64,000 nt of DNA. Origin: a virus. Taxonomy: Duplodnaviria > Caudoviricetes. Shown piece by piece: positions 46,841 to 63,949 of this stretch (the first letter of the stretch is position 1; the number at the start of each line of letters is the position of its first letter). Where the stretch lies: positions 4,702 through 68,701 of IMG/VR virus record IMGVR_UViG_3300031910_000003. One strand, 5' to 3'. The notes under the pieces are model-generated. The model was not told where the DNA came from, ran no database searches, and worked only from the letters and a program-made list of their open reading frames with translations. The translations under genes were made by a program, and so were the position numbers.

Positions 46841-46844
46841 TGGC

Positions 46845-47806: not shown

Positions 47807-47825
47807 AAAAATGCGCAGTGCGCGC

Positions 47826-48400: not shown

Positions 48401-48402
48401 CG

Positions 48403-49188
48403 TCAGCCAAACAGGCGGCGGCGCAATTCCTTCATGGTCATCGCACGGTCGCCGGCCACCGCTTCGGCAAAGTCACCAGCGGTGCACTCGTAGGGCGGTG
48501 TCAGCCGCCCCTGCGGCAGCTGGTACACGACGCGGACCGGTGTCTTGATCACCTTGGCGTCATTGAGCCAATGCAGTCTGATATATCGGCTGTGTGCGAC
48601 CAGGAAGCGTTTGAGCTTGGCGAAAGGCCACTGCCCCTCATCGCCGATGCGCCGCGGGTGCCGCCGATCCCGCGCGAACATCTCAAAGGCACGCTCGGTA
48701 AACGCCCGATGGTCGAGTTCGGGCAGTCTGCGATAATCCCAAAGCACATCGACGTCGTGCAGCTGGCTCGCCTCGGTGCGGTAGCTGCCGAAGATCGCCA
48801 ACCCGGTCACTTCGACAAGGTGATCCTGCCGCGCGGCCGCGGCCGCCTGGGTGCGCTCGAGCAGCCCCGTGACGAGCCGATCGGCTGTGGCGCGGCTGAT
48901 CGCCGGCAAAAATAGCGCGGCGCAGAGACTGCTGCCCGCGGACCCGATCTCGTGGAGCGGCACATCGGGGTCCCGGAATCCGCTTGCCCGCTTTCTCGAG
49001 CGCTTCGCCAAACGGCGTCTGAGCATTTCGGCCAACAGTCGCTCCGCCGCTGGTTGGTCGAGAGCGAAGAACTCGACGACGTCATCGATCTGGAATTTGT
49101 CGGACATCGATCCGCGCACCATGCGGAGGAACTCGCGCACCCGGGCGATGGGCAGACCGTCGACGGTATCGGTTCGGTCGAACTTCAT
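48403..49188 (-). CDS. Pol-beta-superfamily (minimal) nucleotidyltransferase with N-terminal extension
   Basis: LAIFGSY......HDVDV (GS-x-DxD). Confidence 0.7.
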   Translation of the reverse strand: MKFDRTDTVDGLPIARVREFLRMVRGSMSDKFQIDDVVEFFALDQPAAERLLAEMLRRRLAKRSRKRASGFRDPDVPLHEIGSAGSSLCAALFLPAISRATADRLVTGLLERTQAAAAARQDHLVEVTGLAIFGSYRTEASQLHDVDVLWDYRRLPELDHRAFTERAFEMFARDRRHPRRIGDEGQWPFAKLKRFLVAHSRYIRLHWLNDAKVIKTPVRVVYQLPQGRLTPPYECTAGDFAEAVAGDRAMTMKELRRRLFG

Positions 49189-49418
49189 TCGGTGGCCTCT
49201 GGAGCCAGTCCCTCAAGGCGGCGCAGCCGCTCGCCCTGGCGCGAGACTTGGCTGTGGGTCGCGCGGATCTCGGCTAAGAGTCGGGTGTGGCTGTTGTCGA
49301 GCCGCTGCACGATGGCGGTGAGCACGTTCACGTCATCGCGTAAGCTGGCGAGCTCGGCCAGCATCCGATCCTGCTGACGCGCCAGAAACTCCAGCGTGAC
49401 CGGTTCGCGTTCGCTCAT
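49185..49418 (-). CDS. Small coiled-coil protein
   Basis: Heptads; partial leader motif at 49427. Confidence 0.6.
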   Translation of the reverse strand: MSEREPVTLEFLARQQDRMLAELASLRDDVNVLTAIVQRLDNSHTRLLAEIRATHSQVSRQGERLRRLEGLAPEATE

Positions 49419-49795
49419 TCGGCAGACTCCTCGGAAGAGCAGAGCGCGCCCTGCGCTATCCCGGTCCCTTCGTTCCAGGTGCCGCAGCCGCAGAGCCATT
49501 GGCCGGCGTGGTTGATCACGTCGACCTTGGTCGGATTGAACACGTCGCCGCAGTCGCGGCACTGGATGATCTCGCCGGTGCGGTCGTAGTAGACGGTTTC
49601 GTCGGGCTCGCTCAGATCGATCAGCGCGACGCGCTGGCAGTCGCTCGGATGGTCGCTGCCTTGGTAGCGCTCGAAGACGTCGAACACGGTGGCGGTCGTG
49701 TCCGGTTTGGCTTGGTACTCGCGCGCCTTCTCGGCGGCTTGCTGCGGGTTGTCGGCCTCGAGGTCGATTTCCCAGCGGACGAGATAAGCGGTCAT
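49415..49795 (-). CDS. Hypothetical protein with Zn ribbon
   Basis: YLVRWEIDLEA..P.QAA.KA; CRDC..CGC. Confidence 0.65.
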   Translation of the reverse strand: MTAYLVRWEIDLEADNPQQAAEKAREYQAKPDTTATVFDVFERYQGSDHPSDCQRVALIDLSEPDETVYYDRTGEIIQCRDCGDVFNPTKVDVINHAGQWLCGCGTWNEGTGIAQGALCSSEESAE

Positions 49796-50034
49796 AGCCC
49801 GAAGCTCTGTGCCAGTTTTTCGGATTGCTCTTCCCCCACCTCGGCGATGCAGTCGACTGCCAGCATAACCTCGTGGCGAAACAGCTCGACCGAGAGATGG
49901 TCGAGTGTGCCGTGCGCGATGCGCATCCAGGCCTCGACGTGCCGCGGGTTGGCCTCGGGTGCGAGTCTGCGGATCAGGCCTTGGTAGCTAGTGACGGTCA
50001 TTGTTATGTCCCCCGTGGTTGTGACGGCGCTCAT
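49792..50034 (-). CDS. Hypothetical protein
   Basis: NPRHVEAWMR..HGTLDHLS...F. Confidence 0.6.
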   Translation of the reverse strand: MSAVTTTGDITMTVTSYQGLIRRLAPEANPRHVEAWMRIAHGTLDHLSVELFRHEVMLAVDCIAEVGEEQSEKLAQSFGL

Positions 50035-50558
50035 GACTTGCGCCTCCGTCGCCTGGGCTCGATGATCTCGAGGGGCCAAGGAAATTTCGTCACCTCGATC
50101 ATCAGCAGTAGCTCGTCGGCGAGCGTGCCGGCGGCGTAGTGCTTTTGGACCTCTTCGGCGTCGAGGAGCGGGCCGCTGCCGATCTCGGTGATCGACCATT
50201 CGAGGCTGATCGGATTGCCGGTTTGGCTTGACTCCTTGGGCTGACGCGCCGGATCGAAAAACTCCATGTGCGGGTGCCACTCGCCGCCGGCCTCGCACTC
50301 GGCCTTGTGGATCAGACCGAGCTCGCGGCAGAGCGACTGAACGTTCTCAAACTGGCCCCACGACGCTTCGTTGGCGCACAGGTACAGGTGGCGCTTCTCT
50401 CTGGCGCAGGCCTCGATCTCGGCGAGCGCTTTGTCTTCGTCGAGCGCGCCCCAATCGGGTCCGCAGCGGTCCTCGACGATCGCCTCGACCAGGCTGTCGA
50501 GATCGCGGCGCTTGATCTTGCCGCCGATCGTGATCGCGGCGTTGGCGTATTCGCCCAT
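50031..50558 (-). CDS. Hypothetical protein
   Basis: Coupled ORF. Confidence 0.6.
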   Translation of the reverse strand: MGEYANAAITIGGKIKRRDLDSLVEAIVEDRCGPDWGALDEDKALAEIEACAREKRHLYLCANEASWGQFENVQSLCRELGLIHKAECEAGGEWHPHMEFFDPARQPKESSQTGNPISLEWSITEIGSGPLLDAEEVQKHYAAGTLADELLLMIEVTKFPWPLEIIEPRRRRRKS

Positions 50559-51013
50559 CAGCGTTGCTCCTGTTTCGTGACCAGCGCCAAGGCGATCTGG
50601 TGCAGCTTGGTGCCGGGCGCGTTGCTCGCGGCGCGCGCTCTGACAAAGGCGATGGCCGCCGCGTCGTCGGCGAAGGTGTCGCTGTCGTCGTCCCGCTGGA
50701 TGGCGAGAGGGCCATGCCCGGCGCTGGTCAAGCACATGCACCAGCCTTCCAGCTGGGCGATCAGCATCGCCGGCCCGGTCAATTGCCCGTCGCCGACAAT
50801 CTCGTCGTGTCTCAGCTGATCGGTGAGCAGCAGCAGCCTCTCGGTCGCCTCTTCGAGAAAGGCGCCGGGCCCATCGTCACAGGTCACTTGCCGCAGCCCA
50901 TCGACATCGAGCTCGCGTTGATCCTGCAATTTCAGATCGTAGGTTGCCGCCGCGAGCAGCCGCCAGCAAGCGAGCACGGTGTCGTAATCGAACAGCACGC
51001 GCGGTGTCGTCAT
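50558..51013 (-). CDS. Hypothetical protein
   Basis: Coupled ORF. Confidence 0.6.
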   Translation of the reverse strand: MTTPRVLFDYDTVLACWRLLAAATYDLKLQDQRELDVDGLRQVTCDDGPGAFLEEATERLLLLTDQLRHDEIVGDGQLTGPAMLIAQLEGWCMCLTSAGHGPLAIQRDDDSDTFADDAAAIAFVRARAASNAPGTKLHQIALALVTKQEQR

Positions 51014-51014
51014 G

Positions 51015-51488
51015 TCATCGGTGCTCCTCGTCGAGATCGGCCGAGTGCCGCTTAGGGCAAAAATCTTCATGCGGACCCGTATCGTCGATGGCGCTACCGC
51101 CGCACTCGGGACAGATTGCGAGCGCGTCGCGAGCAGCCTTGTAGGCGATGTCGACGTCATCCCAATCGATGCTGCCGCCATCGCCCTGCGCCTCGCTATT
51201 TGCGTAGGCTTGCACGAGCAGCCGGCAGGCCTTTGCGGCCGGTCCCTCGCCGGCGATCTCTTGCAGTGCGGCGATGATCTCGGGGAGTGCCGACTTGGCG
51301 ATCGACACGCGGCACGCTTCACAGGTCTTGCCGCGGCTGGTGATCGGGCTCAGCAGGATACTGGCTTCGCGATCTTGTTCGCTGGTCGACGAGACGTCGT
51401 AGATCTCGAGGCCATGCGTTTGCACATAGCGATTGCGACCGAGGCTATCGCGGTAACACGGCCTCGCAAACTTGATGATTCTGATCAC
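51015..51488 (-). CDS. Hypothetical protein
   Basis: Leader motif at 51496; CPEC..H..C. Confidence 0.65.
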   Translation of the reverse strand: MIRIIKFARPCYRDSLGRNRYVQTHGLEIYDVSSTSEQDREASILLSPITSRGKTCEACRVSIAKSALPEIIAALQEIAGEGPAAKACRLLVQAYANSEAQGDGGSIDWDDVDIAYKAARDALAICPECGGSAIDDTGPHEDFCPKRHSADLDEEHR

Positions 51489-51527
51489 TGTGTTGCTCCA
51501 TCGGAAGGAAGGGGGGGAAGGGTACCG

Positions 51528-52136
51528 CTATTTCTTGCGGCTTTCGAGCCAGGATCGAGGGACGACCGGGACGTCTGGCTCAACACCCGGTCGGGGAACG
51601 ACGTGAGTCGGTGGTGGCTTGGTGACCGGTTGACGCGGTTGCTTGCCGCCGCGCGGCGGTGACAGTTGGAGCTCGGGCACCTTGATGCCGAGCGTCTCTT
51701 CGAACCATACCGCGACGAGCCGGCGATGGCACCAGTTCTGTGGCACGCTGAACGGTGGCACTTCCCAGCACAGCAGCACCGGCTCTTCGGGTGCGACGAG
51801 CGCGACCAGCTCGGCATAGACCTGCTTGGGGTCGAGCCGCCCCAGCATCTCGCCGTACAACTCGCAATACCGCTCGTAGCTGACGCTGTTGAACCACGGC
51901 CCAGGCGCCAGCTTCGAGTACATGCGGTAGCCTGCCGGGTGATTGCGCGGCGCAAACCGCGCGATGCTGATCCGGCCGGGGCCGCTGTAGGTTCGGAACG
52001 AGCTTGTCTTCACCGCAACGCCTTTCCTTAGTGCCCGTGCAATTGTAGCACGTGACGGCGGCACTGGCACGGTGGTTGCGCGTGTCGCGACGATCGCCGC
52101 GGCAATCAGCTCCAGGTCACTGATTGGCTTGGCCAT
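51528..52136 (-). CDS. DUF488-like protein
   Basis: RISIAR.AP..LAP..Y..LD..VLLCWE..CHRRLVA.W. Confidence 0.75.
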   Translation of the reverse strand: MAKPISDLELIAAAIVATRATTVPVPPSRATIARALRKGVAVKTSSFRTYSGPGRISIARFAPRNHPAGYRMYSKLAPGPWFNSVSYERYCELYGEMLGRLDPKQVYAELVALVAPEEPVLLCWEVPPFSVPQNWCHRRLVAVWFEETLGIKVPELQLSPPRGGKQPRQPVTKPPPTHVVPRPGVEPDVPVVPRSWLESRKK

Positions 52137-52139
52137 CGC

Positions 52140-53045
52140 TCAGGCGATCGGTTCGATTTCTTGGTACCGAGCCGGATCGATGACCATGCCGCAGCCGGGC
52201 TGCTGCGAGCGGTACTCGTCCTTTGGCAACAGGAAGTAGCGCTTGGCGACACCGGGCTCACGCGAGCCGCCGATCGTGGCCATGACGCCGGTCTTGCCCT
52301 CGGGCACCTTCTCGTGCCACTCGCCCCAGGCGCAGATGACCATCAGGTCATTGGCGTGCGCCGCCTCGAACACTTTGATGTCGCGTTTGAAGCTCTCGCC
52401 CGGTTTGAGCTCGACACCGTAGAACTTCTCGTAGGCGTCAGGGTGCCAGTTGCGCATCGTGTCGCGCGCGCTCTGGAGGGTCGTGGCGACGTCGCCCTCG
52501 CCGTGGCAGATAAAGGCAGTCGGGAAGACGGTCGCGACGATCGCCCAATCGCAATCTTCCTCGTACCATCCGCCTTCTCGGCGCATGTAGTCGGGGACCT
52601 GGGCGTTGTGCGCGCGGTCGAGATGGAAGCCGCCGTGGCTCGGGGTGTCGTACCAGGTCACCCCCGGCACGTATTCCTCGGCATTGTCGGCGTGCCCCCA
52701 AGGGGTTCTCTTGCAGACCGCGGTTGTTGGGCCGGTGAACCGCAGCGTCCACGATTTCGGCCCGGCCGGATAATAGATGACCGTCCCGTCGGCGTTGAAC
52801 CGCAGCTCCGCGGCCTTGGGCAGTTCGGCCCACATCTCGACGATCTCGCCATCCGGATGGCGCGGGCCGTCGAAGTAGTAGCCGTTCTTCTGGATCCCCG
52901 GGCGCCCGCTCTTGCGCGTCAGCTTGGGCCGACGCCAGCTGCCGACCAGCCGAGGCTGCCAATGGGCGAGCACGGCGATCACGACACCGGGTGTCTCGAT
53001 CGCGCGCTGCAGGGCGGCTCGTGAGTCGATATTGATCTGGCTCAC
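52140..53045 (-). CDS. DUF7007-like protein
   Basis: TPWG.AD..TPSHGGF.L..WYEEDCDWA. Confidence 0.7.
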   Translation of the reverse strand: MSQINIDSRAALQRAIETPGVVIAVLAHWQPRLVGSWRRPKLTRKSGRPGIQKNGYYFDGPRHPDGEIVEMWAELPKAAELRFNADGTVIYYPAGPKSWTLRFTGPTTAVCKRTPWGHADNAEEYVPGVTWYDTPSHGGFHLDRAHNAQVPDYMRREGGWYEEDCDWAIVATVFPTAFICHGEGDVATTLQSARDTMRNWHPDAYEKFYGVELKPGESFKRDIKVFEAAHANDLMVICAWGEWHEKVPEGKTGVMATIGGSREPGVAKRYFLLPKDEYRSQQPGCGMVIDPARYQEIEPIA

Positions 53046-53329
53046 TGTGCGGCCTCCGGCAGGGTCGCGGCGATCTGCTCGAAAGCCGACACTGGTGCGG
53101 TCTTGAGGAAATAGAGCTCGCCGCTCTTGCGCAGCTTGCCGGCTCGCACGAGCCCGCGCATGAACTGCTCGTAGGTTTCGAGGCTACAGCCCTGCCCCAT
53201 CAGCGCGGCGTAGATCACGCCGCCCGGGGCACCGGTCGGGCCGGCGGCTTTGACCGCCTCGACGATCGCGTCGCAGATCGCGCGGATGGCGCGCGCCTGC
53301 TCGGGTGTCATTTGTGGCATTGGTAACAT
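53042..53329 (-). CDS. Winged-helix-like small protein
   Basis: GAPGGVIYAALM..LE.YE..M..LV..G; leader motif at 53332; start may be 53320. Confidence 0.6.
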   Translation of the reverse strand: MLPMPQMTPEQARAIRAICDAIVEAVKAAGPTGAPGGVIYAALMGQGCSLETYEQFMRGLVRAGKLRKSGELYFLKTAPVSAFEQIAATLPEAAQ

Positions 53330-53377
53330 TGCTCCATCGGAAGGATGCGCCGGAGACCGCCGGCGCGCGGTGTTGGG

Positions 53378-53602
53378 TCAGTTGTATCGGACGGTGAGTC
53401 CTTGCTCGTGGCATCGTTCAGCAAACGCCGTCGCTGCGGCAGAGGGCAGATAAACCGCGCCGAGCCTGACGTTGTACTTGGCGCGCAAATTCGCCATCGC
53501 CGAGCGACCCGCATCACTCAGCGAGTCGACCGACGCGTAACACTCGCCGCGGCGTAACGCTTCAGGCGAATTGCCGAGTGCTTTGACGTGAATATCGGCC
53601 AT
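53378..53602 (-). CDS. Hypothetical protein
   Basis: Leader motif at 53611. Confidence 0.65.
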   Translation of the reverse strand: MADIHVKALGNSPEALRRGECYASVDSLSDAGRSAMANLRAKYNVRLGAVYLPSAAATAFAERCHEQGLTVRYN

Positions 53603-53639
53603 TGCATTTGCTCCATCGGAAGGAAAGTAACCAACACTA

Positions 53640-53668
53640 ATTGTAGCACAATAACCGGCTGAGTACAG
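53640..53668 (-). promoter_or_regulatory. Leftward module promoter
   Basis: CTGTAC-N17-(TGc)TACAAT; similar to 42352-42380. Confidence 0.65.
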
Positions 53669-53689
53669 TGTGTTTACTTGGCGGCCTCC

Positions 53690-54307
53690 TCAATCCATGT
53701 TGCACATAACAAGGCACTGCTCATACGGGATGCCGCTCTCCTCGTGCAGCACCGCGGCCGCGTCGCCGGGCCGGTTGGTCGCCGTCGTCGGGTGGTGCTT
53801 GATCAGGTGCGTCAGCCCGCCGATCAGATAGCGGGCGTCCTGGTCGTCGTAGCCCTGGGCGCGGGCGGCTTTGTAGTCGCGCTGCCATTTGCACTGCGCC
53901 AGGAACTCGCCGCGGATCCGCGATACCTCACGCGGTGAGAAGTACACGCCCGGCTTGCCGGCGATCACCGCGTCGAACCATGCGGCGTCGTCTTCGGGCC
54001 ACTTCCAGGCGCAATCGAGGACGTGCTTGAGTGCCCCGAGCTCGGCCTCGCCCCTGGTGGCATAGCCGCCGCTCGGATAGACGTGGCCGGTCTGCGGCTC
54101 GGCGATGCCCTCGATGATCGTGTGCCCCCAGCCCCAGCGCTGGAAGGCGACCAGCGCCACCACGGCGCCGATGCGGATGATCGTCGGCGAGTCCTCGGTC
54201 TGCTTGACGATGTGCTCGAGCTGGCGGCCGGCGTCCTGCTTGGCGGCGGTGACGGTCGGGCCCTCGCCCTCGATGCCGTAATAGGTCAGCTTGATTATCT
54301 TGCTCAC
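53690..54307 (-). CDS. Hypothetical protein
   Basis: GTG start after the leader motif at 54314. Confidence 0.65.
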   Translation of the reverse strand: MSKIIKLTYYGIEGEGPTVTAAKQDAGRQLEHIVKQTEDSPTIIRIGAVVALVAFQRWGWGHTIIEGIAEPQTGHVYPSGGYATRGEAELGALKHVLDCAWKWPEDDAAWFDAVIAGKPGVYFSPREVSRIRGEFLAQCKWQRDYKAARAQGYDDQDARYLIGGLTHLIKHHPTTATNRPGDAAAVLHEESGIPYEQCLVMCNMD

Positions 54308-54374
54308 CTGTGACTCCTCGGAAGGAAGGGTGCGCCGGAAACCGCCGGCGCTCGGTTCATTTCTCGGCTCTGTG

Positions 54375-54953
54375 CTACCAGCACGAGTACGAGGCGACGC
54401 CCTCGGGATTGACCGAATAGCGCTGACAGACCGTCCGGCTCTGTCTGGGCTGCGCCGGGCGCAGCGCGTACTCATATTCGGCGACGGTGCCCGCTGCGTC
54501 GAGCACGGCCCCGAGCACGGTCCCAAGCCCCTGCAAGAAGCCGCCGACTGCCTGATTGGTGCCCGCCTGCGCGATCCGCTGGTCGAGGGTCTGCAAGTCG
54601 GCAAAGGTCCGGTCTTGCCAATAGCCGGCGCAGGTCTCCATTGCCGGGCTCGGCGGCAGTTGCGGGTTCGGCGCGTCGGCGTGGCAATAGGCGGCGTGCT
54701 GCTGGGCGGCGGCATTGATCCGCCGCGTGAGTTCGACCTGGTCGGCCGGACTCAGCTTGCGGCCAACCTCGATCGCGGCGGCGAGATTGCGCACGGCGTT
54801 CGCCTTGAGCCGCGGCGAGGCGCAGACGATGCGCTGCGGCGGGGTCAGGTCAGGGTGGGCGCAGAATGCGTCAGCTAGGGCTTGCACGTCTTGCGCCTGG
54901 GCGCTGCCCGATAGGCCGATGACCGCACAGGTTGCCAAAAGTGCTTTTCTCAC
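54375..54953 (-). CDS. Secreted protein, LprI-like Cys pattern
   Basis: Signal peptide MRKALLATCAVIGLSGSAQA; C..P.LT..QRIVC..P.L..C..C. Confidence 0.5.
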   Translation of the reverse strand: MRKALLATCAVIGLSGSAQAQDVQALADAFCAHPDLTPPQRIVCASPRLKANAVRNLAAAIEVGRKLSPADQVELTRRINAAAQQHAAYCHADAPNPQLPPSPAMETCAGYWQDRTFADLQTLDQRIAQAGTNQAVGGFLQGLGTVLGAVLDAAGTVAEYEYALRPAQPRQSRTVCQRYSVNPEGVASYSCW

Positions 54954-55001
54954 GTCACTTACTCCTTGGGGTATTGCGCCGGAACCGCCGGCGCGCGGAT
55001 C

Positions 55002-55703
55002 TCAGTCGTTTCTGGCGTGCGGCCATTCGCACCTGCCAGGGTCGCCGCGCACGCAGGCGCGCTCGCCGTCCTTGCAGCGGGCGCAGTTGTGATACTCGAA
55101 TTTCGGGTGCATGCCCGGAAGCAACCGGCGCGGATCTCTCGGGTCGACCGTCTTGTTGTATTCGACGATGGCTCTGACCTCGTCGGGCATCCAGACGCGC
55201 TCGGTGATCGGCTCGAGCTTGGCGAGCTCGCCGACGCGGTCGTGATCGCGGTGACCGGCGCCGGCCGCCAGCGCCTCGCCCTGCTTTCGGGCCCACTCGG
55301 CAGCGGCCTCGCTCTCGGGGATCACCTTGTAGACGCGGCACGGGATCTTGAAGTTGACGCCATTGTGCGCGCGGGCGCTGTCGTGGTGGAAAAACCAGAA
55401 CCACCCGTCCTGCGTTTCCTCGGTGGGGCGCAGCCGGTCGATCGGGATTCCTTGATCGAGACCACCGGAATGCTCGACGCCGCCATTGCGGCAGAGATGG
55501 AACGAGCCGCCGGCACCGATATCGCGCGGCCCCTTGCTTGGCCCTGACGTCGGCTGGATGCGGTCGCCCCAATGGTGCGCAAAGCGGCGTAGCTCACCGT
55601 CCGTCATCCAAACAAAATCGCCGACACGCGGACCGGTGATCCGCTCGCGGCGCAACTGGCGCTCGGCGAGGATCTCGCCGTCGCGTTCGTCAAACTCTGG
55701 CAT
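55002..55703 (-). CDS. Hypothetical phage protein
   Basis: GPRVGDFV..RF.HHW..GSF.L..SGGLD..WFFHHD..AH.GV. Confidence 0.65.
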   Translation of the reverse strand: MPEFDERDGEILAERQLRRERITGPRVGDFVWMTDGELRRFAHHWGDRIQPTSGPSKGPRDIGAGGSFHLCRNGGVEHSGGLDQGIPIDRLRPTEETQDGWFWFFHHDSARAHNGVNFKIPCRVYKVIPESEAAAEWARKQGEALAAGAGHRDHDRVGELAKLEPITERVWMPDEVRAIVEYNKTVDPRDPRRLLPGMHPKFEYHNCARCKDGERACVRGDPGRCEWPHARND

Positions 55704-55717
55704 TGTCGTCAATCTCC

Positions 55718-55924
55718 TCAGTGGGCATTGTAAAAGGTCTCGTCGGCGACCGCGGCGTCGAAGCTGTTTTGCATCGTCTCGCCGCAGCCGCACTCCGAGC
55801 CGAAGGTGTCCCGGGTGCGCGGGTAGAAAAACGCGCGCTGGCCTCGTCTGATCTGGCCGGTCTTGCAGCCGCTGCACGGGCTGTCGAATTTGGCGGTGAT
55901 CCAGTAGGGGTCGCCACGTGCCAT
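55718..55924 (-). CDS. Small Cys-containing protein
   Basis: WITAKF.S.C.GC..I.RG. Confidence 0.6.
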   Translation of the reverse strand: MARGDPYWITAKFDSPCSGCKTGQIRRGQRAFFYPRTRDTFGSECGCGETMQNSFDAAVADETFYNAH

Positions 55925-56466
55925 CAGGAGGTTCTCCTTCTGCGGCCAAGCAGCGCCGTCTCGTGCGGGTTAGGGTCGCGGAGACAAGCCGGGCAGAACT
56001 CCTCGTCCCCGCTGGTAGAGAACGTTTGTTCGCACCGCATGCAATCCCGCTCGACGGTTTCGGGTTCCTCGTTCAGCACCCAGCCGGTGCCGACCTTGTA
56101 GTAAGCGCCGCGCGCTCGCGTCGGCGGCACCAGCAGCGGATCGTCCTCGGTGAGCTCGCCGTATTTGTACGGGTTGTCGCGGAGCATTTTGACGAACGCC
56201 TCGTGCTCGGCGATCAGCCAGGCGTTGAACGCGTCGACCACCGGCTGCGCGATCGGGAACCGCGAGTCGCTCCGGTGCAAGAGACCGATCGAGGCCACGA
56301 CGTCGCGCTCCCAATCGGCGAGGGGCGAGCTGTGGTTGTAGATCGACTTCTCGTAATCGCTGGCCTCGCGGCGCAGCGTCGCGGTGTAGACCGGGCCGTC
56401 GCCGGCGATCTCATAGTCGACGGTGCCCATGTACGAGCAGGTCCAACGGAAGGTGTAGCCGGGCAT
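55924..56466 (-). CDS. Hypothetical protein with C-terminal Zn ribbon
   Basis: GGAGG RBS; CMRC..CPAC. Confidence 0.6.
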   Translation of the reverse strand: MPGYTFRWTCSYMGTVDYEIAGDGPVYTATLRREASDYEKSIYNHSSPLADWERDVVASIGLLHRSDSRFPIAQPVVDAFNAWLIAEHEAFVKMLRDNPYKYGELTEDDPLLVPPTRARGAYYKVGTGWVLNEEPETVERDCMRCEQTFSTSGDEEFCPACLRDPNPHETALLGRRRRTS

Positions 56467-56684
56467 CAAACAACCTCCTCGTCGCTGTCGATCACCGGCA
56501 GTTCCGGCTGCCCGGTCACGCTGTGCACGTTGATCTGAAACTCGCTGCCGTCGTCGCTCGTGATCACGATCTGCCTTGTGTAGTGGGTGTCCCGCGCGTC
56601 TCTGCGGCCCCCGTAGCGGAACCCGCGGCTGATCTTGATCTCCTTCGCGCGGAAGAAGGTCAGTTCGGTGTGTGCTGCGCTCAT
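56466..56684 (-). CDS. Hypothetical protein
   Basis: GGAG RBS. Confidence 0.55.
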   Translation of the reverse strand: MSAAHTELTFFRAKEIKISRGFRYGGRRDARDTHYTRQIVITSDDGSEFQINVHSVTGQPELPVIDSDEEVV

Positions 56685-56863
56685 GCTGCTTGTCTCCTGC
56701 GTTGCGCATACTTGCGGGGTTTGGGGCGCTTGATCGGTTGCACCAAGCGGCCATTGCGGTAGCTGGCGTCGCGCTCGACCTCGGCCAGCGTGCGGTGGTT
56801 GCGGAACGCCCAGCTGTCACCAGCTGGGACGTCGCGGGCGGCGAGCGGGTGGCGGTTCATCAC
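56681..56863 (-). CDS. Small protein, paralog of 37399-37590
   Basis: PLAARDVPAGDSWAFRNHRTLAEV. Confidence 0.65.
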   Translation of the reverse strand: MMNRHPLAARDVPAGDSWAFRNHRTLAEVERDASYRNGRLVQPIKRPKPRKYAQRRRQAA

Positions 56864-57123
56864 CGCCGCCCTGGTGCTTGGTCGATCTTCTCGGCGATCG
56901 AGTCGATCTCTGTCTTGACGTCGAAAAGGCGCCCGATGCGCGCAATGTGCTCGTCGTGCGCTTTGAGGAACGCATCCGGCCCTTGCGGGTAATAGTCCCG
57001 CCCGTGCGGCGAGGCATCGCCCAACTTGTCGATCGCGACCAGCAGCGCGTCGCTCGCGTTGAGCAACTGCTTGATCAGTTCCTCGCGGCTGGTGCCGTTT
57101 AGGTGGATGGTCGGGATCATCAT
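56860..57123 (-). CDS. Hypothetical protein
   Basis: PTIHLNGTS..L..PHGRDYYPQ. Confidence 0.65.
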   Translation of the reverse strand: MMIPTIHLNGTSREELIKQLLNASDALLVAIDKLGDASPHGRDYYPQGPDAFLKAHDEHIARIGRLFDVKTEIDSIAEKIDQAPGRR

Positions 57124-57419
57124 GCGCCCGGCCCCCGGCGTTGCAGCCGTGTCGCCAGCCGGGCCCGCCACTGATTTGTGGCCTCGTCGATCTCGCGCGC
57201 GATGCGCTCGCATTTCGCGCAGGTGCACGGCTGCGGGTCGGTCCACTGCTCGGCGCAGTAGGAGCGATAGAGCGCCTTGGCGACGCCCTCTTGCACGTCT
57301 GGGCTCTCGTTCGGGAAGTGGAAACGCGCGAGCGAGTGCGCCTCCTCCTGGGTGACCGCGTACACCGGTCCGATGTCGGACGCGATTTGGTCGGCCTTTA
57401 CGTCATACTCGTCGTACAT
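57120..57419 (-). CDS. First gene of the leftward module array
   Basis: Leader motif at 57427. Confidence 0.65.
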   Translation of the reverse strand: MYDEYDVKADQIASDIGPVYAVTQEEAHSLARFHFPNESPDVQEGVAKALYRSYCAEQWTDPQPCTCAKCERIAREIDEATNQWRARLATRLQRRGPGA

Positions 57420-57465
57420 ACGATTGCTCCTCGGAAGGAATTAGTGAGCAATAACAACAACTTAG

Positions 57466-57495
57466 AGTGTAGCACAAAGTACCATAAATGCACAG
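57466..57495 (-). promoter_or_regulatory. Leftward promoter
   Basis: CTGTGC-N18-(TGc)TACACT. Confidence 0.6.
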
Positions 57496-57516
57496 GTTTT
57501 TTGTTCATCGGGCTTG

Positions 57517-57525
57517 TGCTAAGCT
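57517..57525 (+). promoter_or_regulatory. Extended -10 rightward promoter
   Basis: TGcTAAGCT; predicted +1 near 57532; no clear -35. Confidence 0.5.
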
Positions 57526-57531
57526 GGTGCT

Positions 57532-57621
57532 GCTTCTCGGAAGGAAGCACGGGCGTCCCCGGCTTCGCCTTTAAGGTCCGGGGATTGAGCGGCCGCGGGT
57601 CTCGCCTGCGGCCGTTCTTTT
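57532..57621 (+). ncRNA. Predicted three-hairpin sRNA antisense to the leader motif
   Basis: GCTTC-TCGGAAG-GAAGC; TCCCCGG..CCGGGGA; GAGCGGCCGCGGG..CCTGCGGCCGTTC followed by TTTT. Confidence 0.55.
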
Positions 57622-57629
57622 GTGAAAAT

Positions 57630-57695
57630 GCGGCGACTGTAGCAGACAGCGAGGTCCCCCTCGTTGGCCGGGTGCGAGTCCCGGTAGCCGCTCCA
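57630..57695 (+). ncRNA. tRNA-like RNA lacking a 7-nt anticodon loop
   Basis: Acceptor stem GCGGCGA (or GCGACTG)/TAGCCGC; T-arm CCGGG-TGCGAGT-CCCGG; T-CCA end; CGAGG-TCCC-CCTCG hairpin. Confidence 0.65.
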
Positions 57696-57727
57696 GTTCA
57701 TTGCGCGCGATTGATTGCGGGGAGCTG

Positions 57728-59080
57728 ATGTTCGTCGGCGCGGTCCCCAAGGAGTTTATTGCGCAGATCCTCGATGTCGTGCCGTTTGACCAGTGGGGTG
57801 GTGTGCATGTCTGCTGCTCCGGCTCGTTCCGGCCGGAAGTGGCATTGCGGCAGCGCTACCCGGATTTGCCCATTGTCGGCAACGATGTCTCATTGCTGTC
57901 CGTCGCGATCGGCGAATTGGCAGTCGGGCGCTTGCTCGAGTTTCGCTTCCGCGAGCGCCTAGCACCGCTCGAGGAGATCCTCGCCGGCTGCGACCAGACG
58001 GACCGCGTCGCCGCCGTGCTGATCGCGCAGGAGATGGCCGTCTATCGCGGCCGCAATGCGCACGCGCAGGGGATGTTCGAGCATTACCTGGCGCATTTTG
58101 AAGCCTTTCTTGCGCCGGCCCGCGACAAGCTCGTGACGCTCGTCCGCGATCTTGCGTCGACCGATTTCTTTGCCGGCGATTTCCGTGTGCACGCGGCGCG
58201 CGCGGCCGCGGCCGGCGCCGGTATCCTGGCGTTCCCGCCGACTTACAAAAACGGCTACGAGCGCATCTACAAATTTCTCGGCGACAATGTCGAGTGGGCG
58301 CAGCCGCCCTATGACATCTGGGACCCGGCCGAGCTCGAAGAATGGTTGCGCGGCATCGACGACGCGGGTCAGCGCTATTGCGTGCTCGCCGATCGATTGC
58401 TCCCCAGCTTTACGCCGGCGATCCGCTACGACAATGCGAGCGGGCGCAAGACGGTGTGGGGCTATACCGACCAGAGCGGCTCGTCATTGCGTGGCAAGTC
58501 GGCCGCGGAAGTGCCGTTTCAGTATCGCGCGGTGCAGCCGGCGCGCCTCGGCCCGAAGACCCAGGTCAGCCTCGTGCAGGTCGAGGCGGGCCACATGACG
58601 TTTCTCAAGAACCAATATCTCGCGCGCGGCATCAAGCACGTACCGGGGATGCTTAATTTTCTCGTCATGCTCGGTGACGAGCTCGCCGGCGGCTTCATCT
58701 ATTCGCGCTCGCGCATGAACCCGGAGACCGAGCTCTACCTGCTCTCGGACTTTTCGATCGTGCGTGAGGGCCGCATCGCCAAACTGGTGGCGTTGCTCGC
58801 GACCTCGCGGCTGGCTGTGGACGTGGCGCGCAAGCGCTTTATGTCGCCGCTCGACGAGATCTGGACCACTGTTTTCACCGACAAGCCGGTCAGCATGAAA
58901 TATCGCGGTGTCTTCGAATTGAAGGCCCGCAAGCCCGGCTTTCTCCAATACATGTCACCGATCAGGAATGAGACCCCGAATGAGCTCTACCGAGAATGGT
59001 TCAAGCGCTACGGTAGGAGTGCCCAAGCTCGAAACGCGGGTCAGAAAGGTGCCGATCAGCCGGCTCGAGAGGCTGCCTGA
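57728..59080 (+). CDS. Putative DNA-modification enzyme (adenine-MTase-like N-terminus, GNAT-like C-terminus)
   Basis: VHVCCSGSFRPE..NDVSLLS; FPPTYKNGYE; YLLSDF..KLVALLA..TTVFTDKPVSMKYRG; GGGGAG RBS; resembles a phage family I recall as a putative antirestriction adenine methyltransferase (not searched). Confidence 0.6.
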   Translation: MFVGAVPKEFIAQILDVVPFDQWGGVHVCCSGSFRPEVALRQRYPDLPIVGNDVSLLSVAIGELAVGRLLEFRFRERLAPLEEILAGCDQTDRVAAVLIAQEMAVYRGRNAHAQGMFEHYLAHFEAFLAPARDKLVTLVRDLASTDFFAGDFRVHAARAAAAGAGILAFPPTYKNGYERIYKFLGDNVEWAQPPYDIWDPAELEEWLRGIDDAGQRYCVLADRLLPSFTPAIRYDNASGRKTVWGYTDQSGSSLRGKSAAEVPFQYRAVQPARLGPKTQVSLVQVEAGHMTFLKNQYLARGIKHVPGMLNFLVMLGDELAGGFIYSRSRMNPETELYLLSDFSIVREGRIAKLVALLATSRLAVDVARKRFMSPLDEIWTTVFTDKPVSMKYRGVFELKARKPGFLQYMSPIRNETPNELYREWFKRYGRSAQARNAGQKGADQPAREAA

Positions 59081-59732: not shown

Positions 59733-60150
59733 GCTCGAGCACGTCAAGGACGCACTGCGCGCGTCCGGCGGCATCGTCATTGGTGCGGCCAATAAGCTCG
59801 AGCAGGCCTATGGCTCATGTGCACCCGCGACGGTGCGCAATTACATCAGGCGTCACCCCTCGCTCCAACGCTTTCGCGACGAGATCGTCGAGGACACGCT
59901 CGATCTGGCGGAGACCGCGCTGATCAAGGGCATCGCTGCCGACAACATGACAGCGGTCATCTTCTACTTGAAGACCAAAGGCAGAGAGCGCGGCTATGTC
60001 GAACGCGTGGGCTATGTCGACAAGGACAACCAGCCTGCCAATCCCGCCGATGCGCAACACCAATATGTCGTAGTGCTTCCAGACAATGGCCGGGAGTATA
60101 GTGACGCTGACGACGAGCTCACCGAAGCCGACGCCGACGATACCGGCTAA
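59716..60150 (+). CDS. terS: Terminase small subunit (HTH)
   Basis: AL..SGG.V..AA..L..RNY..LDLAE..L...I..N.TA.IFYLKTKG..RGY.ER; directly upstream of TerL. Confidence 0.8.
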   Translation: MTEKFKLEHVKDALRASGGIVIGAANKLEQAYGSCAPATVRNYIRRHPSLQRFRDEIVEDTLDLAETALIKGIAADNMTAVIFYLKTKGRERGYVERVGYVDKDNQPANPADAQHQYVVVLPDNGREYSDADDELTEADADDTG

Positions 60151-61651
60151 CGCGATCCAGCTGAAGCCGCAGCCCGGGCCGCAGACCACATTCATCACGA
60201 GCAAGGCTGACATCGCGATCTATGGCGGCGCTGCCGGCGCCGGCAAGACCTATGGGCTGTTGCTCGAGGCCGCACGGTACTTGCCGCGCACACCGGCGTT
60301 TGATGCGGTGCTGTTCCGCCGCACGACCCCACAAATCACCAACCCTGGTGCGGTGTGGGACGAAGGGCTGCGCTTTTTTACGAAGATCGGCGGCGAGCCG
60401 CGCACGGGGCACCACGAGTTCCTCTGGGCGGGTGGCGGCAAGCTGCGCATGGCGCACTTGGTCGCCGAGCTCACTGTGCTCGACTGGCACGGTTCACAAC
60501 TGGCACTGATCCTGTTCGACGAGCTGACGCAGTTCACCGCGTATCAGTTCTGGTACATGCTCAGCCGCAACCGGTCGACCTGCGGGGTCCGGCCCTATGT
60601 GCGGGCCACCTGCAATCCCGACCCGGACTGTTTTGTCGCCGAGCTGATTGCCTGGTGGATCGATCAGGAGACCGGTTACCCGATCCCCGAGCGGGCCGGC
60701 GTGCTGCGCTATTTCGTTCGCCTTGGCGACAAGATCATTTGGGATGACCGGCCGGGGCCGCTGCGCCAATACCTGCCAAAGCTGGAGGACCTGCCGCCCG
60801 GCGTCGATCGGCCGCGCATCAAGTCGCTGACCTTTATTCCGGGCAGGCTGTACGACAACGCCGCGCTGATGCGCAAGGACCCGGATTACCTCGCCAATCT
60901 GTTGGCGATGCCGGTCGTCGAGCGCGAGCGCCTATTGGGGGGCAACTGGAAGATCCGGCCGGCTGCAGGCCTCTATTTCAAGCGCGGCTGGTGCGAGATG
61001 GTCGACGCCTTCCCGGCGTTGCGCGACACCGTGCGCTATTGGGATCTGGCGGCGACCGAGAAGACCCCGGACAACGACCCGGACTGGACCGTCGGCGTCA
61101 AGCTCGGCCGCGACGAGTTTGGCGGGCTCTATGTGCTCGACGTGATCCGCGAACGGGTCGGCCCGTTCGAGGTCGAGCAGCTGTTAAAGAACACGGCGAG
61201 CCAGGACGGCAAGACCTGCAAGATCGGCTGGGGCAAGGACCCGGGCCAGGCCGGCAAGGCGCAGACTCTCAATTACGTGCGCATGCTGGCCGGCTATTGG
61301 GTCATGCCCGAGGCCGAGACCGGCGACAAGGTAACCCGCTTTGGGCCCGCCTCGGCACAGTGCCGTGCCGGCAACGTCAAGATTCTGCGCGGCCCGTGGA
61401 ACGAGGACTTCTTCCGCGCGCTCGAGGGCTTCCCGGACCTGATGCACGACGATGATGTCGACGCGTTCGCCGGTGCCGTCGAGCTGATGCACGCGCAAGC
61501 GCCGGGCATGAACATCTACGAGCTGTATCGGCAACAGGCGGCAGAAGCGGCGGCGGCAGAAGAAGCCAAGCGCGCTGCTCAACCCAAGCCGACGCCGCAG
61601 CCGGGATCGGTGGAGTGGTTTCAGATGATCAACAGCCGCAATACCGAGTGA
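60086..61651 (+). CDS. terL: Terminase large subunit
   Basis: YGGAAGAGKT; LFDELTQF; RATCNP; YWDLAAT..HDDDVDA RNase H-like nuclease. Confidence 0.95.
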   Translation: MAGSIVTLTTSSPKPTPTIPANAIQLKPQPGPQTTFITSKADIAIYGGAAGAGKTYGLLLEAARYLPRTPAFDAVLFRRTTPQITNPGAVWDEGLRFFTKIGGEPRTGHHEFLWAGGGKLRMAHLVAELTVLDWHGSQLALILFDELTQFTAYQFWYMLSRNRSTCGVRPYVRATCNPDPDCFVAELIAWWIDQETGYPIPERAGVLRYFVRLGDKIIWDDRPGPLRQYLPKLEDLPPGVDRPRIKSLTFIPGRLYDNAALMRKDPDYLANLLAMPVVERERLLGGNWKIRPAAGLYFKRGWCEMVDAFPALRDTVRYWDLAATEKTPDNDPDWTVGVKLGRDEFGGLYVLDVIRERVGPFEVEQLLKNTASQDGKTCKIGWGKDPGQAGKAQTLNYVRMLAGYWVMPEAETGDKVTRFGPASAQCRAGNVKILRGPWNEDFFRALEGFPDLMHDDDVDAFAGAVELMHAQAPGMNIYELYRQQAAEAAAAEEAKRAAQPKPTPQPGSVEWFQMINSRNTE

Positions 61652-61657
61652 CCTGAC

Positions 61658-63949
61658 ATGCCGCGCGGTGGAACCCAAACCTCACTCGTCGGGATGGTCA
61701 ATACGCTGATGGCGCCGTTCCGCGGCCGTCAGCCCGGCAGAGGCGCGCCGGTCTACAGCTATGCCACCACGCCTAATGGACGGACCCCGGACATCACCCA
61801 GTTTGCGCCGGTTTTCCAGCCATCGGGCGGGCTCTTTGCACCGGGTTATCCACTGGTGCCGCCCGATTACGAGCGCACCCGCCGCTACAACTTTCCGGTG
61901 GGCATCAACTACATTTATACACCACGCTCGTTTGAGCCGATCGGCTTTGCCGAGCTCAAGGCACTGTCCAATGACGACATCACGCGGCTGTGCATCGAGA
62001 CCCGCAAGGACCAGATCGAAAAGCTCGGCTGGACGATCAAGCCGCGCGACGAGGACGGCCCAAAGAAGTCCGGCACCGACAAGCGCATCCAGCAGCTGAC
62101 CGAGTTCTGGCAATACCCCGACGGGATCACGCCATTTGCGACGTGGTTGCGCCAATTGATGGATCAGGTGCTGGTCATCGACGCGCCGGCGATCGAACCA
62201 CGGCGCAATCGCGGTGGCGACGTCATCGGGCTCGACATCATCGACGGGTCGACGATCAAGGTGCTGATCGACGACACCGGGCGCCGCCCGCGGCCGCCGG
62301 CTCCGGCTTTTGAGCAGATCATTCACGGTCGGCCATGGGTATTGCTCGAGGACGGCACCCGCGCCAACACCGAGGAAGGCGAGATCGTTGACCAGTTCAC
62401 CGATCAGGAGCTGATCTATTTCCCGCGCAATCAGCGCGCCGACCACCTCTACGGCTTCTCGCCGGTCGAGCAGATCGTGCTGACGATCAACACCTCGATC
62501 CGCCGCGGCGTGATGCAGCTGCAGCACTTCACGCAGGGCAATGTGCCGCCCGGTCTGGTCAATGCGCCGACGGGCTGGACACCCGAGCAGATCGCACAGT
62601 TTCAGGACTGGTTTGACGGCAAGCTCGCCGGCAACACGGGCGAGCGCACCAAGCTCCTATGGGGACCCGAGGGCGCCAAATACCAGTCGATCAAGGAAGC
62701 GCCGCTCAAAGACGATTTCGACGAGTGGCGGGCCCGGGTGATTTGCTTCGCCTTTAGCCTGCCGCCGACCGCCTTCACCAAGCAGGTCAACCGCAACACC
62801 GCCGAGAGCGCGCAGGAAGCGGCACTCGAGGAGGGCCTGGCGCCGCTGATGGGCTGGGTCAAAAGGCTGGTCGACGGCATCATCCAGCGCCGCATGGGCC
62901 ACCCGGACCTCGAATTCTCCTGGTCGGACATCGCTCCGGTCGACCCGAAAGACCAAGCCGACATGCTGGTCGAGCTGGTCGGCGCCGGGCTGGAGACCTT
63001 GAACGAAGCGCGCGACCTCTTGGGCCTCGACCCCATCGAGGGCGGCGACGAGATCATGTTCAAGACCGGCACCGGTCCGGTCACCCTCGACAGCATCCTC
63101 AACCCGCCCGAGCCGCCGCCGGTCGTGGTGCCGGCTGGTGCGGGTGTAGTCGCGCGAAATCGACCGCCAGCCGCCGGCGGAAAATCGCCGCCGTCGAAAA
63201 ACGGCGCACGGCCGTCGAAGAACGGCACAAAACCGCCGGCAGGCGGCAAAAAGCAGCCGACGACGGCAAAACCGGAGAAGCCCGAGGGCGGCGCCGAGGC
63301 CGGCGGGAAGGCGAAACCGGGCAAGGGCGGGGTAGGCAAAGTCGCCGGCGACCCTCTTCGCCAAGCGGCGGGAGAGCCGCCGCAACATAGCCTTGCTGGA
63401 CCGGACCAAGACCCGCTTGCAGACGAAGCTCGAGCGCTTCTTCGCCGAGCGCGCGCGGGACGTGGCGCGGCAGTTGGCCAAGGAGATGCGGCTCGAGGGC
63501 TGGGAGAGGCTGTAGACCTGCCGCCGCCGTGGCGCTTGATCAGCGGCATCGTTAGCAAAGCCGGCGAAGACAGGGGGCATGTTGCCGCCGAGAACGCGCG
63601 GCCGGTCGAGTTGCCGCTGGCCGACGACATTACGGAAGCTGACATTCGGCACATTGCCTGGCAGATCGTTCGCGATGCGATGGCGCGCGGCGAGGCGCCG
63701 AAGACGCGGACCCGCACGGTGCCGATCGGCGACCTGGTAGCGACCCAGCGTGTCGTCGACGACGAGCGGGTCGAGGACGACGCGGCCGATTACCGCCAGC
63801 ACGGCCAGGGCGCGGAGAAGCCGCTGGTCGTCGAGCGTCAGGGCAAATGGTACATCCTGGCCGGGCATCACCACGCCGAGGGCGCGCTCGACGAGGGTGC
63901 CAGCGAGCTGCGGGTCGAGGAGCTACTGCAAAGCGGAGCCGACGAGTAG
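61658..63949 (+). CDS. Portal protein with long linker and C-terminal ParB-like domain
   Basis: Portal motifs (LD..DG.TIK..D..GRRP..PA..Q..G; YGFSPVEQ; G..P.G; TLNE.R..LG..P) to about aa 490; C-terminal VPIGDLVATQ..PLVV..G.WYILAGHHH. Confidence 0.9.
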   Translation: MPRGGTQTSLVGMVNTLMAPFRGRQPGRGAPVYSYATTPNGRTPDITQFAPVFQPSGGLFAPGYPLVPPDYERTRRYNFPVGINYIYTPRSFEPIGFAELKALSNDDITRLCIETRKDQIEKLGWTIKPRDEDGPKKSGTDKRIQQLTEFWQYPDGITPFATWLRQLMDQVLVIDAPAIEPRRNRGGDVIGLDIIDGSTIKVLIDDTGRRPRPPAPAFEQIIHGRPWVLLEDGTRANTEEGEIVDQFTDQELIYFPRNQRADHLYGFSPVEQIVLTINTSIRRGVMQLQHFTQGNVPPGLVNAPTGWTPEQIAQFQDWFDGKLAGNTGERTKLLWGPEGAKYQSIKEAPLKDDFDEWRARVICFAFSLPPTAFTKQVNRNTAESAQEAALEEGLAPLMGWVKRLVDGIIQRRMGHPDLEFSWSDIAPVDPKDQADMLVELVGAGLETLNEARDLLGLDPIEGGDEIMFKTGTGPVTLDSILNPPEPPPVVVPAGAGVVARNRPPAAGGKSPPSKNGARPSKNGTKPPAGGKKQPTTAKPEKPEGGAEAGGKAKPGKGGVGKVAGDPLRQAAGEPPQHSLAGPDQDPLADEARALLRRARAGRGAAVGQGDAARGLGEAVDLPPPWRLISGIVSKAGEDRGHVAAENARPVELPLADDITEADIRHIAWQIVRDAMARGEAPKTRTRTVPIGDLVATQRVVDDERVEDDAADYRQHGQGAEKPLVVERQGKWYILAGHHHAEGALDEGASELRVEELLQSGADE

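Follow-up and report, generated by a model that had tools for sequence, protein, structure and literature searches.

A candidate base-pairing RNA complementary to a leader tag of twelve leftward phage genes

The divergent region, its tagged leaders and the candidate small-RNA unit

The window considered here is a 64,000-nucleotide stretch of phage DNA, bases 4702–68701 of the 68.7-kb virus record IMGVR_UViG_3300031910_000003 (Duplodnaviria; Caudoviricetes); its G+C content is 65%, and the record is estimated to be 79% complete. The element under study is a 93-nt unit on the + strand, starting at 57532, which lies between two divergent sets of genes and is a candidate source of a ~90-nt RNA. 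To its left extend ~16 kb of small − strand genes, mostly of unassigned function, and to its right follow + strand genes encoding a DAM-like/GNAT-like DNA-modification protein (57728–59080), a ParB-like protein, the large terminase TerL (60086–61651) and the portal protein (61658–63949). Twelve of the leftward genes share a tag in front of their start codons, and the 5' hairpin of the unit carries the complement of that tag.

The tag upstream of the leftward starts reads TTCCTTCCGA(N)GGAG, with the fuller consensus TTCCTTCCGA(N)GGAGC. The pattern CTTCCGA(N0-1)GGAG was found in 12 copies against 0.11 expected, and none of 100 shuffles reached 12. All 12 copies are on the − strand, from 41479 to 57437, and each is followed after 6–12 nt by the start codon of an open reading frame of 70–296 aa (12 of 12). 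The bare 7-mer CTTCCGA is not significant by itself (16 found, 10.5 expected), so the leader signal resides in the longer motif together with its placement. The tag is absent from the 45 kb of other genes. An extra base inside the tag is present in six copies (GA-N-GGAG) and absent from the other six (the GAGGAG type). Several tags stand at a fixed distance after a −10-like TGCTAnnnT, and others lie within operons, directly behind the preceding gene. As RNA the leaders are weakly structured, with local folds mostly between −2 and −7 kcal/mol, suggesting that their Shine-Dalgarno sequences are probably open by default.

A thirteenth copy of the tag, reading TTCCTTCCGAGAAG, is located at 57533–57546 (− strand), upstream of the divergent leftward early promoter, whose −10-like element is TGCTACACT (57466–57474, − strand). 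This copy has the same DNA orientation as the 12 leaders but carries GAAG where they have GGAG, and no start codon follows it within the usual spacing. On the + strand it forms hairpin 1 (57532–57548), composed of GCTTC (57532–57536), TCGGAAG (57537–57543) and GAAGC (57544–57548), such that the RNA would present the anti-tag GCUUC-UCGGAAG-GAAGC, complementary to the leader sequence UUCCUUCCGAGGAGC. The minimum-energy fold adds one U:G pair, giving a 6-bp stem with a CGGAA loop. With GAAG instead of GGAG on the − strand, the + strand hairpin has a Watson-Crick pair at a position that would otherwise be C·A (a U:G pair on the − strand).

Hairpin 1 is followed by a second structural hairpin containing a G:U pair (57555–57585, + strand), and then by a sequence scored as an intrinsic terminator (57587–57624, + strand), with a 14-pair stem at 57587–57617 followed by UUUUGUG. 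The predicted fold of the 93-nt + strand unit from 57532 onward comprises three independent hairpins (−52.8 kcal/mol, z = −4.26), and none of 200 shuffles was as stable. The − strand of the unit folds at −38.6 kcal/mol, 14 kcal/mol weaker, because hairpins 2 and 3 contain G:U pairs, and the U-tract of the terminator is found on the + strand only. The terminator is strong and lies 107 nt before the first rightward gene, and there is no + strand gene upstream that it could end. No start codon with a Shine-Dalgarno sequence occurs within the unit. Rfam searches of the whole window gave no match at the gathering score, and over 57400–57760 nothing reached the curated threshold, the best matches being generic small-RNA shapes with E ~1.

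Hairpin 1 begins seven bases past the −10-like element TGcTAAGCT of a putative rightward promoter (57517–57525, + strand), and a possible −35-like TTGTTCA (57501–57507, + strand) is located 10 nt 5' of the GCTAAGCT octamer. The Caulobacter-type housekeeping promoter consensus is TTGACGS-N10-14-GCTANAWC; the spacing of the two elements matches this consensus and not the spacing of Escherichia coli sigma-70 promoters. The 68.7-kb genome has only 13 occurrences of TGCTANNNT, five of them just upstream of a tagged leader or of the candidate small RNA. The −10-like class TGCTAnnnT is common to the rightward promoter and four tag-associated leftward promoters. An earlier, sequence-only reading of this stretch had described the 12 leader copies with their CUUCCGA core, the hairpin with a loop complementary to that core, the two further hairpins and U-tract ending a ~90-nt unit, the thirteenth copy with GAAG and no start codon after it, and the position of the unit in the divergent region feeding the modification/terminase/portal operon; all of these descriptions were borne out.

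The same reading proposed that the RNA pairs over 14–16 nt, with one G:U, across the Shine-Dalgarno sequences of the GAGGAG-type leaders. The complementarity was confirmed with slightly wider limits: the six GAGGAG-type leaders can form ungapped runs of 12–17 bp with 1–3 G:U pairs, covering GGAG, and the six GA-N-GGAG leaders form 9–11 bp followed by a one-base bulge and then GGAGC. To include the cost of pairing, the entire 90-nt RNA was cofolded with 50-nt segments spanning each start. The net gain averaged −16.2 kcal/mol across the 12 leaders (−9.4 to −22.7), as opposed to −5.4 kcal/mol for 55 other start regions of the genome (sd 2.7, best −14.7), in agreement with the proposed interaction.

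Among the GAGGAG-type leaders, all given here by − strand tag, gene and net cofold gain in kcal/mol, tag 1 (TTCCTTCCGAGGAG, 57427–57440) precedes a 99-aa gene at 57120–57419 and pairs in a 16-bp run with one G:U (−19.9); tag 2 (54314–54327; gene 53690–54307) pairs over 16 bp (−14.3); tag 6, with only a partial 5' part GCTCTTCCGAGGAG (49427–49440; gene 49185–49418), pairs over 13 bp with three G:U (−9.4); tag 7 (47744–47757), before the DUF6011 gene at 47045–47737, pairs in a 17-bp run (−16.2); tag 10 (GCCCTTCCGAGGAG, 43305–43318; gene 43085–43297) pairs over 12 bp (−17.9); and tag 12 (41479–41492), before a ParB-like gene at 40576–41466, pairs in a 16-bp run (−22.7). Five of the remaining leaders read GA-T-GGAG: tag 3 (53611–53625; gene 53378–53602), which pairs over 11 bp up to the bulge (−12.2), tag 4 (53332–53346; gene 53042–53320; −17.7), tag 5 (51496–51510; gene 51015–51488; −21.8), tag 8 (46476–46490; gene 46248–46469; −9.9) and tag 9 (43755–43769; gene 43326–43748; −14.7). 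Tag 11 reads GA-C-GGAG (42323–42337; gene 42044–42316; −17.7). The genes at 43085–43297 and 43326–43748 are identical over the 26 nt from the tag through the start codon (43297–43318 and 43748–43769; acccgATGGCCCGCAAGTCCCGCAAA, beginning the protein MARKSRK...), suggesting that leader and N terminus were duplicated as one module.

Joint change of tag and anti-tag in related phages

Direct searches for relatives of the locus were unproductive: blastn of 56800–58800 against phage records and tblastn of the 99-aa early protein gave no match, a single-protein search for related loci in viral and genome contigs found none, and scans of viral contigs for the tag or for the anti-tag returned only isolated, scattered chance matches. 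Relatives were identified through homologues of the DAM-like protein, followed from a large protein index to their encoding contigs, together with a profile scan of viral contigs, which added more distant ones. The contigs with DAM-like homologues share the divergent layout of the window.

Four lineages (the window, L019/L377, L021 and L431) have each their own leader tag, marked by CCGA, CCCA, CCAC and CTACCACA, respectively, and in all four the complement of the lineage's own tag, here called the mirror, is carried by a hairpin with which the predicted rightward (DNA-modification/terminase) transcript begins. In lineage A, the window, the leaders are CCUUCCGAGGAG and CCUUCCGA(N)GGAG, the RNA is CUUCUCGGAAGG and the mirror is GCUUC[UCGGAAG]GAAGC; two further contigs, L018 and L379, are identical to the window in the small-RNA gap. 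Lineage B (L019 and L377/L378), with a DAM-like protein of 71% identity, has at least eight leaders of the forms CCUUCCCAGGAG and CCCUUCCCAGGAG, the RNA CACCUGGGAAGGGG and the mirror GGUCUUCC-A-CCUGGGAAGG-GGAAGAUC. Downstream of its mirror lie, as in lineage A, another hairpin, then a GC-rich terminator hairpin whose tail is U-rich, and finally a tRNA-like element, and TGCTATGCT is found at the same distance from the hairpin as the −10-like element of the window. Lineage C (L021; DAM-like identity 64% for the aligned part in one comparison, 67% in another alignment) has leaders CUUCCACGGAG and the RNA CUCUGUGGAAGGAG, with the mirror CUCUGUGGAAGGAGAA in the 19-nt loop of a GCCGCC/GGCGGC stem, within a gap that was checked to be non-coding. 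Lineage E (L431; 43%) has leaders CCUACCACAGGA, often doubled, and the mirror RNA UCCUGUGGUAGG in a CCGCGAUCC/GGAUCCGCGG hairpin located 82 nt upstream of the start codon.

The contiguous pairing runs in these relatives measure 11–13 bp in lineage B, 12–15 bp in C and 8–12 bp in E, and at least five positions vary between lineages on both partners yet stay paired. The stems around the anti-tag are unrelated in sequence: GCUUC/GAAGC in A, GGUCUUCC/GGAAGAUC in B, GCCGCC/GGCGGC in C and CCGCGAUCC/GGAUCCGCGG in E. When 35-nt segments around every copy of the motif were folded, the mirror copy was the most stable local hairpin in each lineage (rank 1 of 13, 9, 4 and 9 copies, a joint chance of ~1/4200); in the window it folds at −16.5 kcal/mol, compared to −2.0 to −10.3 kcal/mol for the other copies.

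More distant DAM-like loci carry tags of their own. The leaders of L423, L430, L433, L434, L436 and L441 read CCTACCAC/CCTGCCAC-GGAG, and two prophage-like loci (L383 and L384) have leaders CCCCCC-N-AAGGAG with no mirror copy. In the upstream 10 kb of each of these six contigs and of L431, CCTACCAC(A/G)GGAG or CCTGCCACGGAG occurs in 3–8 copies, and a pyrimidine block CC-Y-N-CC located 5' of the Shine-Dalgarno sequence recurs across these DAM-like/GNAT phage groups. A different kind of repeated early control region is seen in L416, where a ~60-nt promoter-plus-leader unit occurs in four copies before leftward genes (9900–10000 and three more places in the upstream 10 kb); this repeat includes a GCGG-CTGGAA-CCGC hairpin and AGGAG, and has no mirror copy. 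Within lineage B, one variant (L377) has an HNH gene before its terminase (12422–13066), and its portal reading frame (14512–17703) is ~370 aa longer than that of L019 (13840–15927) and has a weak LAGLIDADG match, which suggests that homing-endonuclease or intein insertions differ between near-identical phages of this lineage.

Between the terminator and the DAM-like/GNAT gene of the window is a tRNA-like element ending in GCUCCA (57630–57696, + strand), which is also present in L019 (9920–9985) and L377 (~9915–9985). Its acceptor-like, middle and T-arm-like stems covary among the three (GCGGCGA/UAGCCGC versus GCGGGGA/UACCCGC; CCGGG/CCCGG versus CCGC/GCGG). In the more distant relatives L380 (~480–560) and L020 (~6375–6440) a T-arm-like hairpin and GGGACGCUCCA are kept directly before the same gene. 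ARAGORN called none of these elements a tRNA, and a scan of three collections for a 14-base pattern taken from the element gave ~350 chance loci and no new relative. Cleavage at this element may release the upstream RNA from read-through transcripts. Since aminoacyl-tRNA can serve as a substrate of GNAT-fold transferases, a link between the tRNA-like RNA and the DNA-modification (GNAT-like) enzyme is conceivable. The conserved 14-mer GACTGTAGCAGAC of the element corresponds on the − strand to TGCTACAGT (57636–57644), a sequence of the early-promoter −10-like class, which could be a leftward promoter for an antisense transcript or a coincidence of the RNA's conserved core.

Proposed base pairing with the leaders and its alternatives

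Judged from sequence, the feature itself, comprising the motif set, the complementarity, the + strand structure, the terminator and the joint change of tag and anti-tag, is real. The reading we favour, with moderate confidence, is that it represents a base-pairing RNA element that covers the Shine-Dalgarno sequences of the phage's own tagged early genes. Host RNA polymerase would start at ~57532 from a housekeeping-type promoter (−10 GCTAAGCT), and most transcripts would stop at the intrinsic terminator near 57621, yielding an RNA of ~90 nt. Its 5' hairpin would display UCGGAAG, with the arms and flanks lengthening the complementarity, and would pair with the common tag UUCCUUCCGA(N)GGAGC of the 12 leftward accessory/early genes, over 12–17 bp or over 9–11 bp plus 5 bp across a one-base bulge. 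Such a duplex over the Shine-Dalgarno sequence would keep the 30S subunit from binding and might open the mRNA to decay, and the whole tagged set would be translated less, together. The RNA would double as the 5' leader of the rightward DNA-modification/terminase/portal operon, one promoter serving both the short RNA and the late messages, and read-through transcripts could free the RNA through cleavage at the downstream tRNA-like element. We infer that the RNA is made and pairs in vivo and, from the coverage of the Shine-Dalgarno sequences and the mostly unstructured leaders, that the effect is repression.

The sequence-only reading saw this RNA as a switch acting when late genes turn on or in lysogeny. 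That timing is unsupported, as the promoter shares its −10 class with the early leftward promoters; such a promoter should already yield the RNA at the onset of infection, and a brake or limiter on early proteins, strengthening as template copies rise, is as plausible as a late or lysogenic switch. Two stretches of the window (16041–16538, − strand, and 36219–36755, + strand) match tyrosine recombinases (Phage_integrase) with scores above the Pfam cut-off; together with two ParB-like genes, they suggest that the phage may be temperate or maintained as a plasmid prophage, which would be relevant to an immunity-type role of the RNA. An alphaproteobacterial host is probable: the best TerL matches come from Rhizobium phages (55% identity), a homologue of the neighbouring gene is named from Azospirillum, and the virus record has a weak GcrA C-terminal match. 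The alternative effect that had been offered, in which the RNA unmasks leaders closed by folding CUUC back onto GGAG, was set aside; this leader self-hairpin would have only 4 bp with a 3–4 nt loop and is not kept in the CCUACCAC lineages.

Several observations weigh against a dedicated base-pairing RNA. The extended −10 that had been proposed is present, but a generic E. coli-type promoter scan detected no promoter at the unit; the promoter assignment rests on the sharing of this element with leftward promoters and on its conservation in lineage B. Most of the anti-tag of lineage B is locked into the 11-bp stem of its minimum-energy hairpin, whose loop is GGGA. A terminator is weak in L021 and not obvious in L431, and on this sequence evidence their element is a 5' UTR feature of the rightward operon, not a cleanly terminated small RNA. 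The predicted covariation of loop and leader core is found in four lineages, but the six distant tagged phages (L423, L430, L433, L434, L436 and L441) have no second copy in this gap, and L020 is ambiguous, with a poor candidate GCGGAAA inside a palindrome. The − strand −10-like TGCTACAGT in the tRNA-like element could drive an antisense transcript across the unit. Because all 13 copies share one orientation, joint change would also be expected of one extra copy of a DNA site, and the anti-tag as a 5' UTR feature in lineages C and E leaves room for early leaders acting on the late leader.

The first of the readings raised by these points is that of a DNA operator, in which a phage or host DNA-binding protein recognises double-stranded TTCCTTCCGA at all 13 sites. 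The site at +1 to +15 of the rightward promoter would then repress or time the late operon, and transcription of the leftward genes would be blocked or modulated in the manner of the asymmetric stoperators of cluster A mycobacteriophages. Such a protein would account for the single DNA orientation, for the extra copy directly behind the −10 of the rightward promoter in all four lineages, and for a lineage-specific motif in every copy, which is expected from a single recognition protein. It would not account for a tag locked at 6–12 nt from a start codon with a Shine-Dalgarno sequence even in promoterless genes inside operons, nor for the 1-nt insertion in half of the copies, which an RNA bulge tolerates and a DNA site rarely does; both features favour RNA. 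The mirror alone is enclosed by inverted repeats, whose sequences are different in every lineage, and this too favours RNA over a DNA site, as do the GAAG departure that makes the + strand stem Watson-Crick and the + strand-specific hairpins 2 and 3 and U-tract. Moreover, the 45 kb of other genes lack the tag altogether, a difference from stoperators. On this balance a DNA operator is unlikely.

Alternatively, the promoter, hairpins and terminator may form a purely cis-acting attenuator of the late operon, with the short RNA as a by-product; parallels would be lambda PR'-tR' and its 6S RNA, or an antiterminator-loading hairpin of the nut/put type. In a variant of this explanation the pairing works in reverse, with the nascent late leader bound, and its fate altered, by abundant early leaders. 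The unit is indeed flanked by the only visible rightward promoter on one side and by the DAM-like/terminase/portal operon on the other, its strong terminator precedes the first gene by 107 nt, and in L021 and L431 the anti-tag is merely part of the 5' UTR. However, the Q-type antiterminator families PF06530 and PF03589 were not found at E ≤ 0.1 (in a record estimated to be 79% complete), and no alternative fold joins hairpin 1 to the terminator, the three hairpins being independent in both the minimum-energy and centroid structures. A pure attenuator also gives the hairpin no reason to follow each lineage's leader tag, and a leader acting in cis only is quite improbable.

The thirteenth copy could instead be a pseudo-leader transcribed leftward, for example from TGCTACAGT at 57636–57644, and serve as a decoy tag that titrates a factor binding the real leaders, or be a decayed leader. 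Its orientation is that of the leaders, and the −10-like element of the same class upstream on the − strand is conserved in lineage B, but the conserved 14-mer behind TGCTACAGT may belong to the tRNA-like RNA. On the − strand the unit folds far less stably, and the Shine-Dalgarno sequence is lost in three of the four lineages (GAAG, GTGG and AGAG) and weakened in the fourth (AGGAU in L431), while the hairpin is kept. We regard a pseudo-leader as very unlikely; the joint change in four lineages, the differing stems and the + strand-specific hairpins 2 and 3 speak for the copy being an antisense partner, as the sequence-only reading had it, and not a thirteenth leader. Lastly, a protein sponge, in which a GGA loop binds a CsrA/RsmA-type translational repressor whose targets are the GGA-containing leaders, would fit the GGA in the hairpin loops of the window, L377 and L021 and the A-N-GGA of many leaders, but it is rejected as highly improbable given that the L431 loop UGUGGUAG has no GGA, each RNA has a single site, and the jointly changing positions fall outside GGA.

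Comparison with known systems

Among the papers that could be searched, none describes a phage regulon of this kind, as the earlier reading had supposed. The bacterial small RNAs GcvB and RyhB use one short seed to pair at or near many ribosome-binding sites and end in an intrinsic terminator with a U tail. The proposed RNA resembles them in its one seed, many ribosome-binding sites and terminator with a U tail; it differs in that its targets carry an identical, engineered-looking tag within one phage genome. Among phage RNAs, lambda OOP and P22 sar are cis-antisense RNAs that overlap their single target. The lambda PR'-tR' 6S RNA is a short terminated transcript from a late-operon promoter, with no known pairing target. 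The unit is similar to 6S RNA as a predicted short terminated transcript whose promoter also serves the late operon, and departs from the lambda PR'-qut-tR' arrangement in having no Q homologue (PF06530 and PF03589 absent at E ≤ 0.1 from the 79% complete record). If the favoured base-pairing reading is correct, the short terminated transcript of a late promoter has a job of its own, and one 90-nt RNA shuts off or throttles a dozen unrelated phage genes.

A closer phage precedent for the pairing is the C4 antisense RNA of P1 and P7 (Rfam C4). Its loops pair with a phage message at the ribosome-binding region, a few bases changed jointly in loop and target set heteroimmune types, and the RNA is cut out of a longer precursor at an RNase P site that resembles a tRNA (PMC5320573, PMC12197685). 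The window shares with C4 a loop complementary to the ribosome-binding region of its leaders, and loop and target change together. C4, however, targets a single operon (icd-ant) downstream on its own transcript, whereas here the 12 targets are dispersed on the opposite strand, 0.1–16 kb away, and thus are not on the same transcript. The CCA-ending tRNA-like element is also separate here, located after the terminator, and follows the unit without forming it. The Rfam C4 model had no gathering-score match in the window and was not among the matches at E ≤ 10 over 57400–57760.

The leaders themselves are reminiscent of the start-associated sequences (SAS) of cluster K mycobacteriophages. Pope et al. 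(2011; PMC3203893) did not decide between an RNA and a protein as the SAS partner, and the role of the SAS was still termed unknown in 2024–2025 (PMC11373665, PMC12699233). The SAS is likewise an asymmetric tag of 11–15 nt that includes the Shine-Dalgarno sequence, stands a few nucleotides before the starts of 11–19 non-structural genes in one orientation, and is conserved beyond the need for ribosome binding. Its placement 3–8 nt before starts in the non-structural arm is paralleled by the window tags, at 6–12 nt and all on the − strand between 41.4 and 57.4 kb. The sequences are distinct, as the window tag TTCCTTCCGA(N)GGAG does not fit the 13-bp SAS consensus GGGATAGGAGCCC with at most two departures, and GGAG is all that they have in common. 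The host phylum and the phages are unrelated, and no partner has been proposed for cluster K.

In the cluster K1 phage Anaya (JF704106), a lone reverse SAS copy is found after a terminator, in the 385 bp of non-coding sequence that separate genes 96 and 97 (L467 34871–34883; record 59870–59882). Along the direction of transcription it reads GCGCGG-CCUCCUAUCC-CCGCGC, a 6-bp stem with a 10-nt loop that is the exact complement of GGAUAGGAGG, and this hairpin sits atop a longer predicted stem (region z = −4.3). Pixie (K3) has no reverse SAS copy in its last 11 kb (50–61 kb). The Anaya sequence is no more than a lead, but it suggests that the design may extend beyond one phage group. It is possible, and we put it forward tentatively, that regulons of tag plus mirror are a general phage device, in which a private start-site tag and one complementary hairpin-loop RNA set the translation of a group of genes, and in which the tag/anti-tag pair drifts together and gives a phage-specific, immunity-like specificity. 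If so, such pairs could serve as specificity codes among related phages and as a compact, orthogonal module of translational control for synthetic biology, and the reverse SAS in the Anaya hairpin loop would be the first concrete partner candidate for the cluster K SAS. The SAS has stood unexplained since 2011 with its reader in question; in the phages compared here a candidate reader is visible in the sequence and changes with the tag in four lineages.

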